Source: a phage. Taken from it: a stretch of DNA of 64,000 nt. Location of the stretch: NCBI GenBank assembly GCA_014161675.1, contig GCA_014161675.1_4760.1; one strand, written 5' to 3'. The notes beneath the pieces are model-generated. The model made no database searches. It was not told the DNA's origin and saw only the letters and a program-made list of their open reading frames with translations. Of this stretch, positions 4,421 to 35,001 are shown piece by piece. How positions within the stretch are numbered: the first letter of the stretch is position 1; every line of letters starts with the position of its first letter. The translations under genes were made by a program, and so were the position numbers.

Positions 4421-7400
4421 TTAAAGCGCCTAGTGTAACTAGCTTGACAATAGAAAAATTGTCTGCTAATCAGGCGTATATCACATGGGATGACGTAGGC
4501 GAAAACTTCTTTTATTTTGTGGAGTTAGCCGAAACCAGAACACGAGACGGGGAGATCATCCCCGTCGATGAGTTAAGCTGGGTAAACCTGGGATATACTG
4601 CCGACCAAAACTGGTTTGAGGATAAAAACCTTTTTCCAGAATATTATTACAAGTTTCGTGTAGCAGTAGCCGCAGAAGGATTTGAACAAAGTAAATGGGT
4701 TGAAACAGAAGAGTTTCAGACATTTAAAACAAACGCATATAATTTTTCTATGATGCGAGAGTTCAACCTTGCAAACGAGTTTATAAAGGAAAAATTTACA
4801 TACGATAATCGAGAGTATGTCAAGTTTAATACTGACCTGATTCAAGCATCATTAATGAAGGAAGATTTTGTCTTTAGTCCTGAATATGCAAACATGACAA
4901 ATATCTCAAACTACATTGTAGTGGATGAGAACTTTCATGAAATACAGGATCACATAGAAAAAGTTTGTACTGATATAAACCGCACTATGTTAGCGGAAAT
5001 GAACGGTGTTTTGTACCTTTTCGAACGGTTCCAGCCGATCGTGAAAGTGTCAAATGATAAAGGCCAATCATGGAAAGCATACAAGGCTTTTAATGACCGT
5101 GTAGGCAATCCGGTTTCCCGTACATGCGTTTATCAGTCTAAAACCACTACTTACGTTTTAGGATATGACCGAATCTTTTACGGACGACAAGCGAGCGATA
5201 CTCGATGGAGCGCGGACGATGTTCGATTTAGTGATGATACGATCACTTTTGCAAAGGTCGGTGACGAAAACGATTTAGGCTTTGACGTTGAGGTCTTTGG
5301 TGTATTTTCCAGATTAACAGGTGATACCACAAAATACGCCGAAGCTATGGCGTGTAGTGATGACTATTTGTGGGTTGGTGCTAAAGATGTTATTCGCAGG
5401 ATTCGTCTTAAGAATACTCCTGTTGATACCGTACAGGGTTCGCCTACGTTTGGAGAAAAAATATTCGATCCTGATGTTATCCGAGTAACAGGAAATGATA
5501 AAGCTGTCATTCAGAAAATGGATGTGATCGACGGTAAATTGCTTGTATTTGTTACGGGTGAAGTTAAACAGCGTTATCAAGATCCAACTAAACCAGAAAA
5601 CGTTGTTCCGTCAGATGATGCGGGTGTATACTTAATAGGGAGTGATGGTCTGTCTTTTCAGAGAGTATTTGGCAACACTCCGCAGGAAAGGGAATATATT
5701 CAGCATGGGTTCAGTAATATGTCAACCAATGGTGATGAGGTGTTCATAAGCCATTATAATCATCACTTCGAAAGCATTTTACCTGATCCAGAAACTGCCG
5801 AGAAATATGAATTGGGCGAAGCTGTAAAATATTCTCAGGAGCCAACTTATCTAACTGATAAGAAAATACATCAAACTACTTTCAGAGCAAGTTATGATGA
5901 TTTGCGTATTTGGGAGTTAGGACCGCAAGCGTATTATAACGAGGCTGATTATACATGGATGCGTCGAAACGGTGTCCGTGTGTGGATCACAAATGATAAT
6001 CGCCCGTTGGTTGTTTATCCAGAGGTTATCTATACTCAAGAAGTTGATACGTCTGGCATTCTTGACCAAAATAGGGTCAACCGAGAAGTTTATGATAAAG
6101 GGACCGTGACCTGTTATCTTAACAATGTTAAATTTGAAGGATTCAAACAATATGCATCCGGTGTAATGTTCCATAAAAACACAGGAGAGATCATAGGATT
6201 CTATCAATTTAATTATCGTGTTCGTGATCAGGTTGGTGTATATTGGAAACCTACAAATGTAGCATTTGTTGCTGAATTGCAAAATCAGGTTCGAGAGGTT
6301 CCCTGGGTTCCGGTTCACTACGATCGAGAGCAAGATCCAGATTTGCGGCCTTTACTGAATAAGATGACCCCTGATAGCTTTTTACTTGAGAACGAAAATT
6401 TCAGAAAATTCTCTGAATATTATCTGCAATTCTTAAGCGATGGTTCAGGAACATATTATAATAAACTAAAAAATCTGATTAAAAACAAATATCCACGCGA
6501 GAAAGATGCATATGAGTATCTTTGGTCAGAGATGAACAAACGAAACATCTATGCAGATAAAAACAAGCGAGATGCGGTAGTAAGATTCTTTGAATCCCGC
6601 AAATCAGATTTTTATTCCACTAAGGGCGTGGAGGCTTCTTATAAGTTCTTGTTTAAGTTACTTTATAATGAAGATGTGGAAATTGAGGTTGAATCACAAG
6701 CCGGACTAGAGTATGATATTGTTGTTAGTTCAACGAACATTGACGAGGATATCGTAGGTCGCACGATTTATACTCCAACCGGACGGGCTAACGTGACGTA
6801 TCTTGAAAGGGAATATGAAGGTGGTCGCCTACGCTGGCGAGTAACCATTCATAACCTGATCGGGCGGTTCGAAGAAGGTCAAGTGATCAAATCAGAGAAA
6901 ACAGCGTTTGAAGGGATGATCCTTGTTGGTGTACGTGGTAAAGAGTTGTTGAGTAGTTCAATCGACTATATCAACCGCTCACGAAGCCAATACACCATGA
7001 AGATTAAAAGTGCATTGCCAGTTTCGCGCTATGCAAATGATGTAATGCGATTCGTTCATCCTGTCGGCTTTGGGTTTATCGGTGTTACCCTGCTTACAAT
7101 GTTCATTAACAGCGGGTTAAGCATGAAGCACACCGAGACTATAATTCAATCTCTGAAAAATTATAAGTTTGACAGCGGATTGCCTAGCGTGTATCCTGAT
7201 CGGGTGGCAGACCTTGACGTTGACGGAAACATTAAGAAAGACCCGCTTACCGGAAAAGCATTATATTTGACTTCACCTTTAATTGGTGAAGAATTTCCGG
7301 TTCCTCCTGAATATGATCAGGAGAACAGCGAATTGTTCCACGGACTTAAAGCAAGCGAACGAAGATTTGCAATGAGTCCACTGTTTGACCAGTCGGCGGT

Positions 7401-10017: not shown

Positions 10018-10021
10018 TTAT

Positions 10022-10047
10022 AAGCCGTCCTTGTGGGCGGCTTTTTT
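10022..10047 (+). terminator. Rho-independent terminator after MTase cassette
   Basis: GCCGTCC-ttgt-GGGCGGC hairpin (one G-U wobble as RNA) followed by TTTTTT. Confidence 0.5.
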
Positions 10048-10057
10048 GTATGTATTT

Positions 10058-10065
10058 TATAAATA
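10058..10065 (+). promoter_or_regulatory. T4-type late promoter (TATAAATA) for gp9
   Basis: Exact TATAAATA about 28 nt before gp9 ATG; GAGGAA RBS follows. Confidence 0.45.
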
Positions 10066-10092
10066 ATACATCATAACATGAGGAATTAAACA

Positions 10093-31606: not shown

Positions 31607-32848
31607 ATGACTCATATTTTTACTGAACTGTTGCGGGAATCTACTTCCTCAGTAGCTAACCAGACAGCGCGACCGCAACTATTATCATTAACTCGCGCGG
31701 TAAACAACCTGATTTTCTCTGATCTGGTAGCAATCCAGCCAACGGATCAACCAGTATCTGCATTGTACGGCCTACGTTATCTTAATCGTGATGGTCAGAT
31801 GACTTTCCGAACTGCTGCGACCTACGGTGGCGCGGCTGGTGATCGCACAGAGATTGAAGAGTTTTCAAAAGAAAAATCTTATGACGAAGGCGCACTGTTC
31901 AAATCAGACGATGTTGTATACGAAGTTGTGACCGCTGGTACAGTCGGTGAAGATGCCGAAACTCCAGAAGCTGCAATCTTTAAAGGCGTAATGACAAACA
32001 AAATTCGTTTCTATAGCGATTGTGCATCGGTAGAATACTTTGAAGATAAAAACACCGAAATTTCGTCTACCTCTATGCAGTTTGACAAGTGGCAAGTTAA
32101 TGTAGGTTCTCGTAAACTGAAAACCTCGTTCACGACCGAATTGATGCAGGATCTTGAGGCAAGCCAAATCAACTCTGAAAACTCTGTAATTGATCTTCTG
32201 GCTACTGTTGCTTCCGAAGAGATCAACAAAGATATTATTCAGAAGTTGATCACTGTATCATCTCGCTATAAAATTAAAGGGATCACCCCTGATGGCGTAC
32301 TTTCTCTCGTTAGCGTTCAGGATGCACCAACACAAGCGCGTGAACTTTACCGCTATGCTTGCGAAATGAGCAATCAAATGTTGCGGACTTCCTCCTTTGC
32401 TGGTACATACGTTTTGGCGTCTTCTCGCGTGGTTGGCCTCCTGCAATCTACCGGATGGATGGAAGAAACCGACAATGCTCTAAGCGAAGGTCGTCTACGT
32501 TGCGGTCTGGAAGTGTACGCAGACACGACGACACCTTTCGATTATATGCTCGTTGGTTGTAAGCACATGATCGGTGATATGGAGAGTGTAGGTTCTCTGT
32601 TCTACTCCCCATATACAGAAGCCGACGGCGCTGGCGCGTATAAGAGCGTAATTGACCCTAATAGCTTCCAGCATCATGTAGCTATTATGAATCGTTATTC
32701 ACTATCTGTCAACCCATACACATCAAAAGTTGATCAGGAAGAACACCAGGTCATCAAGGGTGACGATTGGGGTAAAATGGCTGGACGTTCAGAAATGTCC
32801 TACATTTTAGGAATCGAACTGCCACCGCTTGAGATTGACAACGCTTAA
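31607..32848 (+). CDS. 24: gp24 head vertex protein
   Basis: N-terminus 'MTHIFTELLRESTSS...' aligns with T4 gp24; ORF-track start 31541 is TTG, ATG 31607 preferred. Confidence 0.85.
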   Translation: MTHIFTELLRESTSSVANQTARPQLLSLTRAVNNLIFSDLVAIQPTDQPVSALYGLRYLNRDGQMTFRTAATYGGAAGDRTEIEEFSKEKSYDEGALFKSDDVVYEVVTAGTVGEDAETPEAAIFKGVMTNKIRFYSDCASVEYFEDKNTEISSTSMQFDKWQVNVGSRKLKTSFTTELMQDLEASQINSENSVIDLLATVASEEINKDIIQKLITVSSRYKIKGITPDGVLSLVSVQDAPTQARELYRYACEMSNQMLRTSSFAGTYVLASSRVVGLLQSTGWMEETDNALSEGRLRCGLEVYADTTTPFDYMLVGCKHMIGDMESVGSLFYSPYTEADGAGAYKSVIDPNSFQHHVAIMNRYSLSVNPYTSKVDQEEHQVIKGDDWGKMAGRSEMSYILGIELPPLEIDNA

Positions 32849-33436
32849 CTAAATATCTAACCAAGACAAGTCAGATCCGCCCAAGATTTTTTCGACGGCG
32901 GATCTATTTTCTTGATGATATAAGTTAAAACATGGTATCCCATGTCTACGGGCAACATAAACAGCAATTCGAGTTCCTCCCGAAACGATTCCATTAACTT
33001 CTTTCGCCCAAAATAACACACAATCTACAGGATCATCAAGTGTCTCACCTAAAACTTGAGCAACATTTCTAGAAAACAGATTTTGCATGTATAACGGTAT
33101 AGAACGAGGATTATCATAAACTTGTTCTAATTCATCCATCGCCAGATTTTTTTGTTCTAAGGTTTGCCATGCAATCACATCATGACCGTTATGCTTGTGG
33201 TCATAAAACTTCCAATTTGGAATGAAAATTTTTCTATAATCTGGATCGTAATATTTCATGAAAGCATTGTCCATACCGTAAGCCCCTCCAGAATGCGCTA
33301 CAACGCGATTTTCTGACAATACCCTCCCAATGGTACTAGCCATTATCAAAATGTCGCTAGGCGCTTTTCTAGAGCCTATTAAAGCACATCTACGAAGTGG
33401 TTTTACTCCAAATAGATCTTGTAACTGGTCAAACAT
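32849..33436 (-). CDS. Rossmann-like protein, possible SLOG/DprA(Smf)-like fold
   Basis: 'CALIGSRKAP...VVAHSGGAYGMDNAF' and 'SGGTRIAVYVARRHGIP' resemble DprA/SLOG motifs; GGAGGA RBS. Confidence 0.35.
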   Translation of the reverse strand: MFDQLQDLFGVKPLRRCALIGSRKAPSDILIMASTIGRVLSENRVVAHSGGAYGMDNAFMKYYDPDYRKIFIPNWKFYDHKHNGHDVIAWQTLEQKNLAMDELEQVYDNPRSIPLYMQNLFSRNVAQVLGETLDDPVDCVLFWAKEVNGIVSGGTRIAVYVARRHGIPCFNLYHQENRSAVEKILGGSDLSWLDI

Positions 33437-33588
33437 AATATTTCCTCCATAGAAAGCAATATCATACTACAAGTTAATAACAAATACAAGTATCCGCGTA
33501 GCGGAAGCGAGCACAGCGAGCAATAAAACACTTCCAGTAATTGATTAATAAATGTTCGAAACAAATTTTTATTATTCTATAAGATAAG

Positions 33589-33614
33589 TCTTCGTTTTGA
33601 TCATAATTTAATCA
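33589..33614. repeat. Direct repeat copy 1 (26 bp)
   Basis: tcttcgttttgatcataatttaatca; identical copy at 33738-33763. Confidence 0.7.
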
Positions 33615-33737
33615 TACATGTAAAAACTACACAAAAGGATATCGCTTCGCGAACTCCTACGGAGTATAACATTTGTGTTACAATATGTAGTGATTAATAA
33701 TTAACCAAAGATACATTTTCTATGTTCTAAAGATCTT

Positions 33738-33763
33738 TCTTCGTTTTGATCATAATTTAATCA
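33738..33763. repeat. Direct repeat copy 2 (26 bp)
   Basis: Identical to 33589-33614; flanking 'aagat' and 'acatgtaaa' also shared. Confidence 0.7.
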
Positions 33764-33818
33764 AACAGTATTAATATTGTGCACATGTAAACTAAAATTA
33801 TGTCAATAATAGATACAA

Positions 33819-33843
33819 AAAAGCCGCCCCGAAGGACGGCTAA
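33819..33843 (-). terminator. Rho-independent terminator (minus strand)
   Basis: On the minus strand GCCGTCC-ttcg-GGGCGGC plus T-run; on the plus strand the stem has a C-A mismatch. Confidence 0.45.
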
Positions 33844-33849
33844 TGTTAA

Positions 33850-34287
33850 TTATTTGTTGATAACGATCTGATTTCGGCGAATGGTAACATTACTCTTAGA
33901 GATGATCAGATCATCCGGCACTACGTTAGTTTTGTATGGTTGGAAGCGAACAAGCATCTGATTGCGTTTAGACCCTTCCTTAATCTTGATTTCCATCTGG
34001 ATATTGTTGCCTACGTGAGCAACCGCAATTTCACCTTTATTCTCATAGACCCACTTGCTGGTAACGTCTCCAGCAAAAGCCTTAATAACTTGCAATGCTT
34101 CGTCGTATGCGGTAGAGCTGTGAACTTTCAGAAGGCCAGCCGTAGCAAGACGGGAGCAGGTGATCGCCGGAGATTGCCAAACATCAACATTAATTTGCTC
34201 AATCAGAGTAACACCGCCCTGATCAACTGCTTTGAATGCTTCGAACATTGCCTTTTTCATTGCTACGTGGTTTTTACGGAATTTCAT
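33850..34287 (-). CDS. hypothetical protein
   Basis: 145-aa ORF with GAGGTGA RBS; no motif recognised. Confidence 0.5.
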   Translation of the reverse strand: MKFRKNHVAMKKAMFEAFKAVDQGGVTLIEQINVDVWQSPAITCSRLATAGLLKVHSSTAYDEALQVIKAFAGDVTSKWVYENKGEIAVAHVGNNIQMEIKIKEGSKRNQMLVRFQPYKTNVVPDDLIISKSNVTIRRNQIVINK

Positions 34288-34333
34288 AATTATTCACCTC
34301 TATTGATTAGTTATTCAGAATATTAATTACAAA

Positions 34334-34609
34334 TCAGGACATTGCCCGTTTGAATGCGTCCATTATAACAGTGTTATTTGGCATGTCAACACGTTTTTGA
34401 ACTTTATTTTTAAATTTTTTGTTGATGTGGTGTTTACGATAAACAACCTTTTCACGATTGGCGTAAGACTCTCGTGCATCTTTTACCATCAACCATGCCT
34501 TAGCCGCATCTTGTCCGCTGATCCCGCCAATCTTCTTAGCAATATCAACAAAATTAAGACCGTGGTCTTCGCGTAGCATGTAAACCATTAACGCTGTTTT
34601 CTTGTCCAT
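34334..34609 (-). CDS. hypothetical protein, possible helix-turn-helix
   Basis: 91 aa; 'LNFVDIAKKIGGISGQDAAKAW' is HTH-like; basic C-terminus. Confidence 0.4.
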   Translation of the reverse strand: MDKKTALMVYMLREDHGLNFVDIAKKIGGISGQDAAKAWLMVKDARESYANREKVVYRKHHINKKFKNKVQKRVDMPNNTVIMDAFKRAMS

Positions 34610-34806
34610 TACTTCGCCTCATTGACGATTAACAGGATAGTGATCAGTACCGGAAACTGGATCATGACAGTACCAAAAAACCGGATAAACGCATTTTCTG
34701 ACTTCCACACATGACATGCGACTAGCTGATAGACCATTGTTGCAACCAAAGCCAGAAAATACATCTCGATTGGTGCTTCTTTGATCAATCGTACAATCTC
34801 ATTCAT
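34609..34806 (-). CDS. small membrane protein
   Basis: 65 aa with two hydrophobic stretches; GAGGTGA RBS. Confidence 0.45.
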   Translation of the reverse strand: MNEIVRLIKEAPIEMYFLALVATMVYQLVACHVWKSENAFIRFFGTVMIQFPVLITILLIVNEAK

Positions 34807-34960
34807 ACTTCACCTCATACATTCATAAACACAACAACGAATAGGACAGTAACAGTTATTAAAGCCATTTTCAACCCCATATTCATAATATTTTCCTCAT
34901 AAGGTAACGCCCTGTTGATGTGTGCCATTATAAGCCACTAAATCACACTGTCAAGCACTA

Positions 34961-34990
34961 AAAACAAAAAAGCCACCCCGAAGGATGGCT
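34961..34990 (-). terminator. Rho-independent terminator after hoc (minus strand)
   Basis: Minus strand GCCATCC-ttcg-GGGTGGC plus U-run. Confidence 0.45.
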
Positions 34991-35001
34991 GATAGATTTC
35001 A

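Follow-up and report, generated by a model that had tools for sequence, protein, structure and literature searches.

What is the function of two identical 26-nt sequences in a seemingly empty part of a coliphage genome? The repeats lie in a gene-free spacer of 413 nt between two minus-strand open reading frames (ORFs), ORF165 and ORF164. The spacer is part of a stretch of 64,000 nt of phage DNA (contig GCA_014161675.1_4760.1 of assembly GCA_014161675.1), which was analysed in its full length and is referred to as the window. The window belongs to the Krischvirus, the RB49/Phi1/JSE group of RB49-type, T4-like coliphages: in a megablast search its positions 32800-34400 matched 59 phage records at 95-99.6% identity, all of them Krischvirus (RB49, Phi1, JSE, GEC-3S and their relatives). 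The first-pass annotation of the window described the repeats as part of a degenerate tandem duplication and proposed a duplicated promoter, an operator or a recombination site. Our analysis identifies the two 26-mers as parts of an 85-base palindromic, promoter-like element that is old and conserved and is present in two copies, of which they form the left arms. It is a genuine non-coding feature that has been kept by selection, with a function that is only putative.

Anatomy of the repeated element

The sequence TGATTAAATTATGATCAAAACGAAGA on the minus strand (tcttcgttttgatcataatttaatca on the plus strand) occurs exactly twice in the window, as had been noticed before, and the copies start 149 nt apart. 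A search of the 64 kb that allowed up to three mismatches yielded no further copy, and 100 shuffles yielded no match at all. The flanking AAGAT is duplicated in register, by which the repeat reaches 38 nt at 89% identity. The second flanking sequence that had been listed as repeated, ACATGTAAA, is indeed found twice (33617-33625 and 33784-33792), but the two occurrences are 18 nt out of register as the result of an indel.

The 26-mer is one arm of a dyad-symmetric unit of ~85 nt, which consists of the left arm (the 26-mer), an AT-rich centre with a TATAAT-like box, and a right arm (see Table 1). In L068, one of the divergent relatives introduced below, the unit is an evident large inverted repeat, with the left arm TGATTAAAATATGATCAAACGTCAT, an AT-rich centre of ~30 nt containing TATAAT boxes, and the right arm ATGACGTTTGATTAATAATTAATCA. 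This right arm terminates in a perfect 17-bp palindrome (TGATTAAT-N-ATTAATCA) that is near-perfect in the window, and the alignment identifies the 26-mer of the window as the homologue of the L068 left arm. A covariance model built from the recovered units (R1) detects exactly two copies of ~85 nt in the window, for which the term 'degenerate tandem duplication' was aptly chosen, and in the relatives it finds the expected copies and nothing else. What had been missed is that the 26-mer belongs to a larger palindromic element, that this element is ancient, and that it is followed by conserved mini-hairpins.

The fold is common to all units and comprises an outer stem of 7 bp, an internal loop, an inner stem of 7-14 bp and a large AT-rich loop. 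In an alignment of 13 units 81% of the cells in the arms are paired, versus 28-45% in slid controls; nine pairs have changed on both sides, and the covariation score was reached in none of 500 shuffles. The -10-like box, ATCT(C/T)TATA, is conserved although it lies inside the loop of the dyad. In L076 the dyad is shifted and the inverted repeat directly hugs the -10 box.

Searches with the 26-mer and with both palindromes, allowing mismatches, revealed no site elsewhere in the window. A dispersed repeat or a regulon was therefore rejected, as the 26-mer, the two palindromes and R1 are all confined to one locus. The approximately five places per genome that show up in distant BLAST comparisons are copies of the T1 terminator hairpin described below.

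The spacer had also been called AT-rich and non-coding, which is in line with a GC content of 30.0%, as compared to 40.7% for the whole window. No ORF in it is conserved beyond the near-identical relatives, and a hidden small protein was rejected, since the mini-ORFs (MIKTK...) are frame-shifted between lineages, lack a Shine-Dalgarno sequence and are not conserved. A search of the ARAGORN class found no tRNA or tmRNA in the window. The Rfam 15 covariance models gave no relevant match, at E-values up to 10, in the spacer of the window or in the L068, L007 and prophage regions. In the public records that were examined the only annotation inside the spacer is a terminator.

Conservation and concerted evolution

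As the close relatives are too similar to be informative, divergent relatives were recovered via the flanking proteins. Identity to the ORF164 protein is about 92% in L066, 86% in L007, 70% in L067, 57-58% in L068, L069 and L070, and 49% in L076, whereas identity to the ORF165 protein is 89% in L077 and 58% in L076. All relatives share the gene order hoc, a small ORF, a DUF2774 gene, ORF165, a gene-free spacer of 326-574 nt, ORF164 and, on the opposite strand, gene 24. The units are present in tandem in each of the eight lineages, with two per spacer except in L067, where there are three.

None of the 59 Krischvirus genomes has lost a unit, and these genomes, like all divergent relatives, contain two or more. 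The direct repeats in these spacers are 26-104 nt long and lie 140-235 nt apart in highly recombinogenic genomes, and the recombination system of this phage family needs less than 50 bp of homology (PMC2839356). The fact that no unit was lost in spite of such efficient recombination points to retention by selection. The sequence of the arm is conserved beyond its pairing, across lineages whose flanking proteins are just 57% identical.

In every lineage, identity between the units of one genome (66-86%) exceeds that between positional orthologs of different lineages (45-64%), which indicates concerted evolution. The left arm is identical at 25 of 25 positions between the paralogs of the window, and likewise in L068, whereas it is 76% identical between the window and L068. 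In L007 the homogenised part consists of the centre and the right arm. Judged from these patterns, the tandem copies would be homogenised by gene conversion, to which co-evolution with a reader of the arm may contribute. The proposal of a recombination site receives indirect support from the concerted evolution of the copies, but none of the 59 genomes shows the loss of a unit.

Within the Krischvirus, only G2248 (L011) and PHB13 (L014) carry altered 26-mers. Both copies are changed, at positions 33753 and 33749 in copy 1 and at position 33600 in copy 2. The changes destroy the GATC (Dam site) in both copies (GATC to GACC and GATC to GAAC), which could reflect parallel selection or conversion.

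A homolog of the unit is found in Escherichia coli. Among 5426 complete E. coli genomes, 53 contain a match to a 43-nt probe from unit 1, with an identity of about 90%. The site lies in an unrelated siphovirus-type prophage near hicAB/yncJ, within a gene-free region of 1.27 kb. The prophage unit scores 73 bits with R1, has a left arm that is 92% identical to that of the window, and contains an intact TAGAAT in its centre. Downstream of it come about six GC hairpins, four with GNA triloops, and then about eight iterons AGTGTAGGTTT (4465-4590); a palindrome, TTGATTAATTATTAATC, is located at 4994-5010. The sequence of the region suggests an origin or a control region, in a prophage that is uncharacterised. 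It also contains two exact CAAAAATTTTGATAG repeats that are 149 nt apart. Neither Pfam nor PHROG assigns a function to the genes next to it. Within the phage collection, the prophage segment is shared by Krischvirus records alone (76 nt at 82%), and no plasmid homologs of the element were found. A comparison of the window with 45 kb of the prophage yielded no shared protein. A common reader of the element would consequently have to be encoded by the host, with RNA polymerase as the obvious candidate.

The single match among the species representatives of GTDB, in the metagenome-assembled genome 'Deltaproteobacteria bacterium tcs-42' (LLYT01000065.1; L074 6758-6784), concerns the left-arm pattern only. 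The site, TTGATTAAATCAGGATCAAAACGAAGATCTTGAG, is intergenic, adjoins a trpB-like gene and lies among palindromes that resemble repetitive extragenic palindromic (REP) elements. R1 detects no dyad unit there, and the match may be due to chance or represent a fragment.

Promoter likeness, hairpins and possible functions

When the 17 units (from the eight lineages and the prophage) are aligned, the 26-mer turns out to span an A/T tract, the hexamer ATGATC in the -35 position and the initial 10 nt of the sequence that separates the two promoter boxes. All 17 contain the A/T tract (TTGATTAAA), the hexamer, a separation of 17-19 nt and a TAtAaT box, and in nearly all of them the hexamer is preceded by TTGATTAAAT(T/A). 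In the divergent relatives the 26-mer aligns to what is predicted to be a decent sigma-70 promoter, whereas both copies in the window are weak. The scores in the relatives amount to 13.3 bits (TTGAAC-17-TATAAT) and 9.5 bits (ATGATC-17-TATAAT) in L076, 10.0 bits in unit 1 of L067 (TTCATC-17-TATAAT) and 9.5 bits in unit 1 of L068. Of the proposed duplicated promoter, the kind of element and its ancestry are therefore supported by the alignment of the 17 units, but not its present-day activity in this phage.

Other types of promoter were considered as well. Candidates on the reverse strand are present in L007, L067 and L068 unit 1 (9.7-13.2 bits), but there are none in the window or in the prophage, and they were rejected for this lack of conservation. 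No match to the T4 late promoter (TATAAATA) or to a MotA-type middle promoter was seen by eye, and none is among the published predictions for the spacer; indeed, MotA and middle promoters are absent from RB49-type phages (PMC1524935).

The units are embedded in a series of hairpins. Upstream, ORF165 ends with the intrinsic terminator T1, a GC-rich hairpin followed by a U-run, which is present in all lineages, is annotated in several records and is listed among the predictions for RB49 (97821-97838; Nolan 2006, PMC1524935 supplement). Unit 1 is followed by module 1, which consists of two adjacent GC mini-hairpins, and unit 2 by module 2, which includes the hairpin T2. No other part of the spacer is as well conserved as these modules: none of their 53 columns varies among 15 Krischvirus sequences. 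Between lineages, the stems of module 1 differ by compensatory changes (ACTCC/GGAGT, AATCC/GGATT, ATGCC/GGCAT) while the GNA or GNNA loops are kept, on the sense strand in all five lineages compared; GCGAAGC is invariant in four of the five. The stem of T2 is likewise perfect but different in sequence in each lineage (TCCGC/GCGGA, TCGGC/GCCGA, TCCCGC/GCGGGA, ATACGC/GCGTAT, TTGCAGC/GCTGCAA), and its loop orientation is inconsistent. T2 is marginal as an intrinsic terminator, with a stem of 5 bp and the tail TACTTGTATT; the tails in L068 and L007 are better. Immediately downstream, the -35 box of a proximal sigma-70 promoter of ORF164 (P3) overlaps the T-tail of T2, and each of the six lineages that were scanned has a predicted promoter at the corresponding position (8.6-12.3 bits). 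When IMG/VR was scanned for the two module motifs, the matches were mostly single ones in other contigs and were taken as chance hits without inspection.

Repeated elements that combine such features have been described for these phages. PeSLs (promoter-early stem-loop cassettes) are known from Phi1, RB49 and other T4-like phages. The genomes of Phi1 and RB49 contain about 50 of them in dispersed positions, and in each one a consensus early promoter of the sigma-70 type is combined with an A/T-rich tract upstream and with a stem-loop (Arbiol et al. 2010, PMC2839356; Comeau et al. 2014, PMC4122927), which is most often located between the boxes or overlaps the -10 box (PMC2839356). PeSLs have been shown to act as promoters and as terminators and to take part in recombination (PMC2839356; PMC4122927). 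T2 and P3 together form an ordinary PeSL-type cassette ahead of ORF164.

We tentatively favour the explanation, as a possibility that stops short of being probable, that the spacer contains a tandem pair of PeSL-like promoter/stem-loop cassettes, from which short non-coding transcripts would start and run as far as the hairpins, all upstream of P3. The cassette would be an ancient, locus-specific relative of the PeSLs. Its left arm would supply the A/T-rich upstream tract, the -35-position hexamer and half of the sequence between the boxes, its centre the -10 box, while the right arm would complete a stem-loop that encloses the -10 box. Host sigma-70 RNA polymerase would initiate at each unit with low efficiency, along the minus (gene-sense) strand, and produce non-coding transcripts of roughly 80-95 nt that pass through the right arm, to end at the module 1 hairpins after unit 1 and at T2 with its T-tail after unit 2; P3 would then start the DprA-like mRNA of ORF164. 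The identity of the 26-mers would be upheld by gene conversion, probably together with a constraint on the arm that contacts the polymerase or another factor. Since T1 already terminates the upstream gene, a terminator-like hairpin such as T2 makes sense only if transcription arises inside the spacer, and its conservation between the strong T1 and P3 is the best indirect sign of such transcription. The sequences show the anatomy and age of the units, their covariation and concerted evolution, their positional homology to promoters, and the conservation of the hairpins and of P3; that transcription starts at the units in this phage, where the RNAs end and what they might do is what we infer.

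Several observations weigh against this explanation. Unit 1 of the window (ATGATC-18-TAGAAC) scores 2.1 bits and unit 2 (ATGATC-19-TAGAAT) 6.2 bits, whereas the early promoters of the phage itself reach 13-17 bits. The TAGAAC box of unit 1 lacks the critical T at -7, and in most units the hexamer agrees with TTGACA at just three of six positions. The hidden Markov model predictions specific to RB49 (PMC1524935 supplement) include neither an early nor a late promoter for the spacer, and a literature search for transcriptome or transcription start site data on RB49 gave nothing relevant among the top matches. In L007 the promoter candidate is placed differently (TTGACA-17-TGTAAT) and there are reverse-strand candidates as well, which suggests that the promoter-like matches partly reflect AT-richness. 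No U-tail follows the hairpins of module 1, whose stability as RNA is low. Among the members of the genus, 4 of 52 columns vary in the 26-mers, as compared to 48 of 361 in the rest of the spacer, which is no significant difference (p = 0.37). Finally, the units do not belong to the dispersed PeSL repeat family, and no ORF directly follows either of them.

The comparison with the PeSLs can be made more precise. The units occur in the same phage group and likewise combine a promoter-like sequence, an A/T tract as in the PeSLs and a stem-loop at the -10 box, which it overlaps or encloses; the arms of the dyad enclose the -10-like box, and T2 lies immediately upstream of the -35 box of P3. They are intergenic and located in a plastic block near hoc, a gene that was linked to PeSLs by the authors of PMC2839356 and PMC4122927, and their repeats could likewise serve as recombination substrates. 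As regards the indels or mini-circles that arise by recombination between PeSL copies, the units are seen to exchange sequence and to vary in number from two to three between lineages, and no deletion is seen in the Krischvirus genomes. They lack two defining features of the PeSLs, i.e. the consensus promoter and the membership of a dispersed family beside ORFans. As to the former, the match is weak in both units of the window, good in homologous units of L076, L067 and L068 (9.5-13.3 bits) and modest in P3. As to the latter, the PeSLs number about 50 copies, mostly upstream of an ORFan, whereas the unit is confined to one locus of the window. In addition, the stems of the units are AT-rich, in contrast to the GGGG/CCCC stems of PeSLs, and the units, which are accompanied by GNA mini-hairpins, exceed by far in age and in breadth of conservation what a shuffling cassette would require. 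The fixation at one locus, the retention in tandem over deep divergence, the GNA mini-hairpin modules and the prophage homolog all go beyond the PeSLs as described.

The same dyads could act in RNA. The units would then be long hairpins in a gene-sense transcript, functioning as RNase III, processing or stability signals or as bodies of small regulatory RNAs, with the arm read by an RNA-binding factor. All units share the same two-helix hairpin with covarying arms, and G.U wobbles outnumber A.C mismatches on the sense strand (17 versus 9, or 15 versus 4 when L007 is excluded), although this excess stems from few independent columns. The combined helix of ~21-25 bp with an internal loop is within the range of RNase III substrates. 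The R sites of phage T7 are RNase III substrates of comparable helix length, and the units resemble hairpins of this type in being repeated, intergenic and built of two stems, a lower and an upper one, that are separated by an internal loop and together make about two helical turns. They differ in occurring at one locus only, in their weakness in this phage (-12 kcal/mol, with z-scores of -1.0 and -1.7), and in their large AT-rich loop with a conserved TATAAT-like box, for which an RNA loop has no need. The strong T1 should moreover let little upstream transcription reach the units, and no convincing promoter precedes unit 1. The shifted dyad of L076 suits a DNA or promoter element better, and there is no Rfam match in the regions scanned. 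We therefore regard a role as structured RNA as rather unlikely. A function in replication appears unlikely too, in which the locus would be an R-loop origin similar to oriF and oriG of T4 or a single-strand initiation signal, with mini-hairpins on the displaced sense strand stabilising the open complex or R-loop. The T4 origins oriF(uvsY) and oriG(34) consist of a promoter and a downstream DNA-unwinding element, in which the transcript forms a persistent R-loop that primes leading-strand synthesis; they depend on MotA-type middle promoters. In the spacer, too, a promoter-like element occurs together with an AT-rich segment that is easy to unwind, in non-coding or leader DNA of the same hoc-uvsW-uvsY neighbourhood, and its AT-rich centres are flanked by inverted repeats, are present in tandem, gene-free and conserved in position. 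The absence of MotA from RB49-type phages (PMC1524935) implies that their origins must be built differently from those of T4. Module 1 contains canonical mini-hairpin DNA motifs (CCGNAGG and GCGAAGC, in ACTCC-GTA-GGAGT and TCGC-GAA-GCGA) with sense-strand loops in all five lineages, although as RNA these hairpins, GCGAAGC included, are worth ~0 kcal/mol. Of the ten C(GNA)G hairpins with a stem of at least 4 bp on both strands of the window, three fall in the spacer (P about 4e-5), and the prophage copy adjoins about eight iterons. Motifs of the types GCGNAGC and CCGAAGG are exceptionally stable as DNA and are found at the origins of G4, St-1 and alpha3, in ssiA of RSF1010 and at the early promoters of N4 (Kimoto & Hirao 2026, PMC13037366). 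The motifs in the spacer are identical (GCGAAGC, CCGTAGG/CCGAAGG) and form C-G-closed GNA triloops that are clustered after the units on one strand; the known cases, however, concern single-stranded DNA genomes or extruded hairpins and are read by dedicated primases or by the N4 virion polymerase. We know of no such enzyme or single-stranded stage for this locus, and of no origin mapped in RB49-type phages. The case for an origin is wholly circumstantial and concerns static sequence features: T4 lacks the spacer and its oriF lies 5.7 kb away at uvsY, the phage spacer contains neither DnaA boxes nor iterons, no plasmid was found with the element, the loop orientation of T2 varies, and the bare 7-mer motifs occur in the window at about chance frequency. 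The module hairpins could equally be RNA 3'-end structures.

Two further explanations concern the arms as such. The units may form an operator array, in which the quasi-palindromic arms TGATTAAATTATGATCA and TGGTTAATTATTAATCA bind a sequence-specific, dimeric DNA-binding protein, encoded by the phage or by its host, which would control the passage of transcription across the spacer and with which the arms would co-evolve in each lineage. The covarying dyad with its 17-bp palindrome, the conservation of the arm sequence beyond pairing, the complete identity of the left arm between paralogs of a lineage in spite of its lineage-specific sequence, and the position of the arms around -35 to +20 of the putative promoter all fit such an array. 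The corresponding part of the first-pass proposal stands as far as the dyad is concerned, but the cognate protein was looked for in vain: the neighbouring genes lack annotation, window and prophage share no protein, and the confinement of the motifs to one locus of the window leaves no regulon. The DUF2774 protein (24.2 in T4) was rejected as the regulator because T4 has it without the element, and the ORF165 protein because its confident structure model contains no nucleic-acid-binding fold and its relatives are uncharacterised phage proteins only. We consider an operator array very unlikely. The units in Krischvirus proper might, on the other hand, be decaying and non-functional remnants, in which case the identical 26-mers would be a recent gene-conversion patch. 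The promoter boxes and right arms are degraded in comparison with L076, L068 and L067, the 26-mers are not significantly less variable than the remaining spacer and have been substituted in both copies in two phages, and in L007 a different part of the unit was homogenised. Direct repeats in a recombinogenic phage should nevertheless be readily deleted, while none of the 59 genomes has lost a unit and all eight lineages have kept two or three. The hairpin modules are invariant in the genus and show compensatory changes between lineages, and a useless spacer of 413 nt would be unusual in the compact genomes of T4-type phages. A relic thus seems quite unlikely. The PeSL-like cassettes remain our preferred, tentative explanation.

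Genomic setting and implications

The coordinates of the features are collected in Table 1. The spacer lies directly upstream, in the sense of the minus strand, of the DprA-like gene that had been annotated as SLOG-like; the 3' end of this gene, ORF164, faces the head-vertex gene 24 tail-to-tail. In some records and gene calls, among them UPWr_E1 (PP418985.1; L012 1-329) and P0002 (L067 1242-1913), ORF164 is longer (239 and 223 aa, respectively, instead of 195 aa). The extension into the spacer is not conserved and crosses P3 and T2, and is probably an annotation artefact. In L007 an extra segment of ~150 nt (~2285-2432) is present between the proximal promoter and the start of ORF164, with a long hairpin, GATACCCTAAAA...TTTTAGAGGGTAT. 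It has no Rfam match and may be a structured 5' leader that is absent from Krischvirus.

Table 1. Positions of the features of the spacer, its flanking genes and the prophage region
Feature	Position	Strand	Description
Spacer	33437-33849		413 nt, gene-free; between the minus-strand genes ORF165 and ORF164; RB49 97435-97847
ORF165	33850..34287	-	145 aa, uncharacterised; immediately upstream of the spacer in every syntenic relative (ORF list and synteny)
T1	33822..33841	-	intrinsic terminator of ORF165; AGCCGTCCTTCGGGGCGGCT followed by T6; 8-bp stem, UUCG loop, -14.3 kcal/mol
Linker T1-unit 1	33770..33821	-	hypervariable; 20/52 columns vary (15 Krischvirus sequences)
Unit 1	33685..33769	-	R1 81.7 bits, E 6.5e-13
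26-mer, left arm of unit 1	33738..33763	-	two variable columns in the genus; both changes in G2248 and PHB13
Hexamer of unit 1	33753-33748	-	ATGATC; 18 nt to the -10-like box
-10-like box of unit 1	33729-33724	-	TAGAAC
Right arm of unit 1	33707-33691	-	near-palindrome TGGTTAATTATTAATCA
Module 1	33642..33665	-	two adjacent GC mini-hairpins, GNA triloops on the sense strand; 0/24 columns vary in the genus
Module 1, hairpin a	33665-33653	-	ACTCC-GTA-GGAGT
Module 1, hairpin b	33652-33642	-	TCGC-GAA-GCGA (contains GCGAAGC)
Unit 2	33536..33620	-	R1 75.4 bits, E 1.2e-11
26-mer, left arm of unit 2	33589..33614	-	two variable columns in the genus
Hexamer of unit 2	33604-33599	-	ATGATC; 19 nt to the -10-like box
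-10-like box of unit 2	33579-33574	-	TAGAAT
Right arm of unit 2	33551-33542	-	decayed, TTATTAATCA
Module 2	33493..33521	-	direct repeat, T2 hairpin and T-rich tail; 0/29 columns vary
Module 2, direct repeat	33521-33507	-	GCTCGC-TGT-GCTCGC
Module 2, T2 hairpin	33505-33493	-	TCCGC-TAC-GCGGA
P3	33461..33489	-	proximal sigma-70 promoter of the DprA-like gene; TTGTAT-17-TATGAT, 8.6 bits
Shine-Dalgarno sequence of ORF164	33448-33444	-	GGAGG
ORF164	32849..33436	-	DprA-like/SLOG-like, 195 aa, downstream of the spacer; phrog_768 E 1.4e-60, weak PF02481 match
Prophage gene-free region, E. coli H2	L071 3885-5151 = NZ_CP028733.1 2553383-2554649		one copy of the unit

ORF165 encodes a protein that is similar only to uncharacterised '24.3'-type proteins of T4-like phages (Cronus, CF1, CC31), a family limited to this clade. 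Its AlphaFold model, with a helical N-terminal and a beta C-terminal half, has a mean predicted local distance difference test (pLDDT) score of 80.8; neither a fold match in the PDB nor a DNA- or RNA-binding fold was found for it. Directly upstream of ORF165, inside the 3' end of the DUF2774 gene, a perfect consensus promoter with an extended TG (TTGACA-16-TATAAT, minus strand, 34389-34362) scores 16.7 bits, which ranks it among the strongest sigma-70 matches of the window. The T1 hairpin (AAAAAAGCCGCCCCGAAGGACGGCT on the plus strand; compare 33815-33849) belongs to a small dispersed family with copies of 82-92% similarity at ~10020-10067 and ~34949-34993, and is alone in this among the features of the spacer. 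This family probably corresponds to the PeSL stem-loops of GGGG/CCCC type that the literature describes. The linker between T1 and unit 1 varies in 38% of its columns, versus 12.6% for the spacer as a whole, and in G2248 a segment is replaced there. It contains an orphan TTGACA (33808-33803, minus strand) that reads TTAACA in most relatives, a G/A polymorphism within the hexamer. A promoter at this TTGACA was rejected, since its sole partner is CACAAT at 19 nt (10.2 bits) and the G is polymorphic.

In T4 the spacer has no counterpart: gene 24.2 abuts rnlB with a gap of 9 nt, from which it follows that the block ORF165-spacer-ORF164 replaces rnlB in the present lineage. T4 (L075, NC_000866 108636-110085) has rnlB, which encodes RNA ligase 2, at the slot that corresponds to positions 32849-34806 of the window. 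Some other T4-like phages, COW86c and CF1, have a DprA-like gene and the RNA ligase 2 gene side by side. The slot downstream of gene 24 is a plastic one.

Members of the Krischvirus are widely used as candidates for phage therapy, and the PeSLs are a textbook case of gene shuffling in T4-like genomes. In contrast to the PeSLs, the unit described here is fixed at one place, where two or three tandem copies have long been kept and homogenised, and it is shared with a prophage. A bolder interpretation, which we regard as improbable, is that the tandem units with their sense-strand GNA mini-hairpins represent an unrecognised class of phage non-coding elements, either an origin or priming (R-loop) module of MotA-less T4-like phages or a pair of small regulatory RNA genes, shared with the prophage by transfer. 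The element is solid, conserved and unannotated in phages of therapeutic relevance, its function is putative, and nothing about it overturns expectations. If the units fire, unannotated short transcripts would be produced in front of the DprA-like gene; if they are origin-like, they would constitute the first origin candidate in the MotA-less relatives of T4. Either way, a concrete and searchable model is now available for the 'empty' region of 413 nt in every Krischvirus genome.

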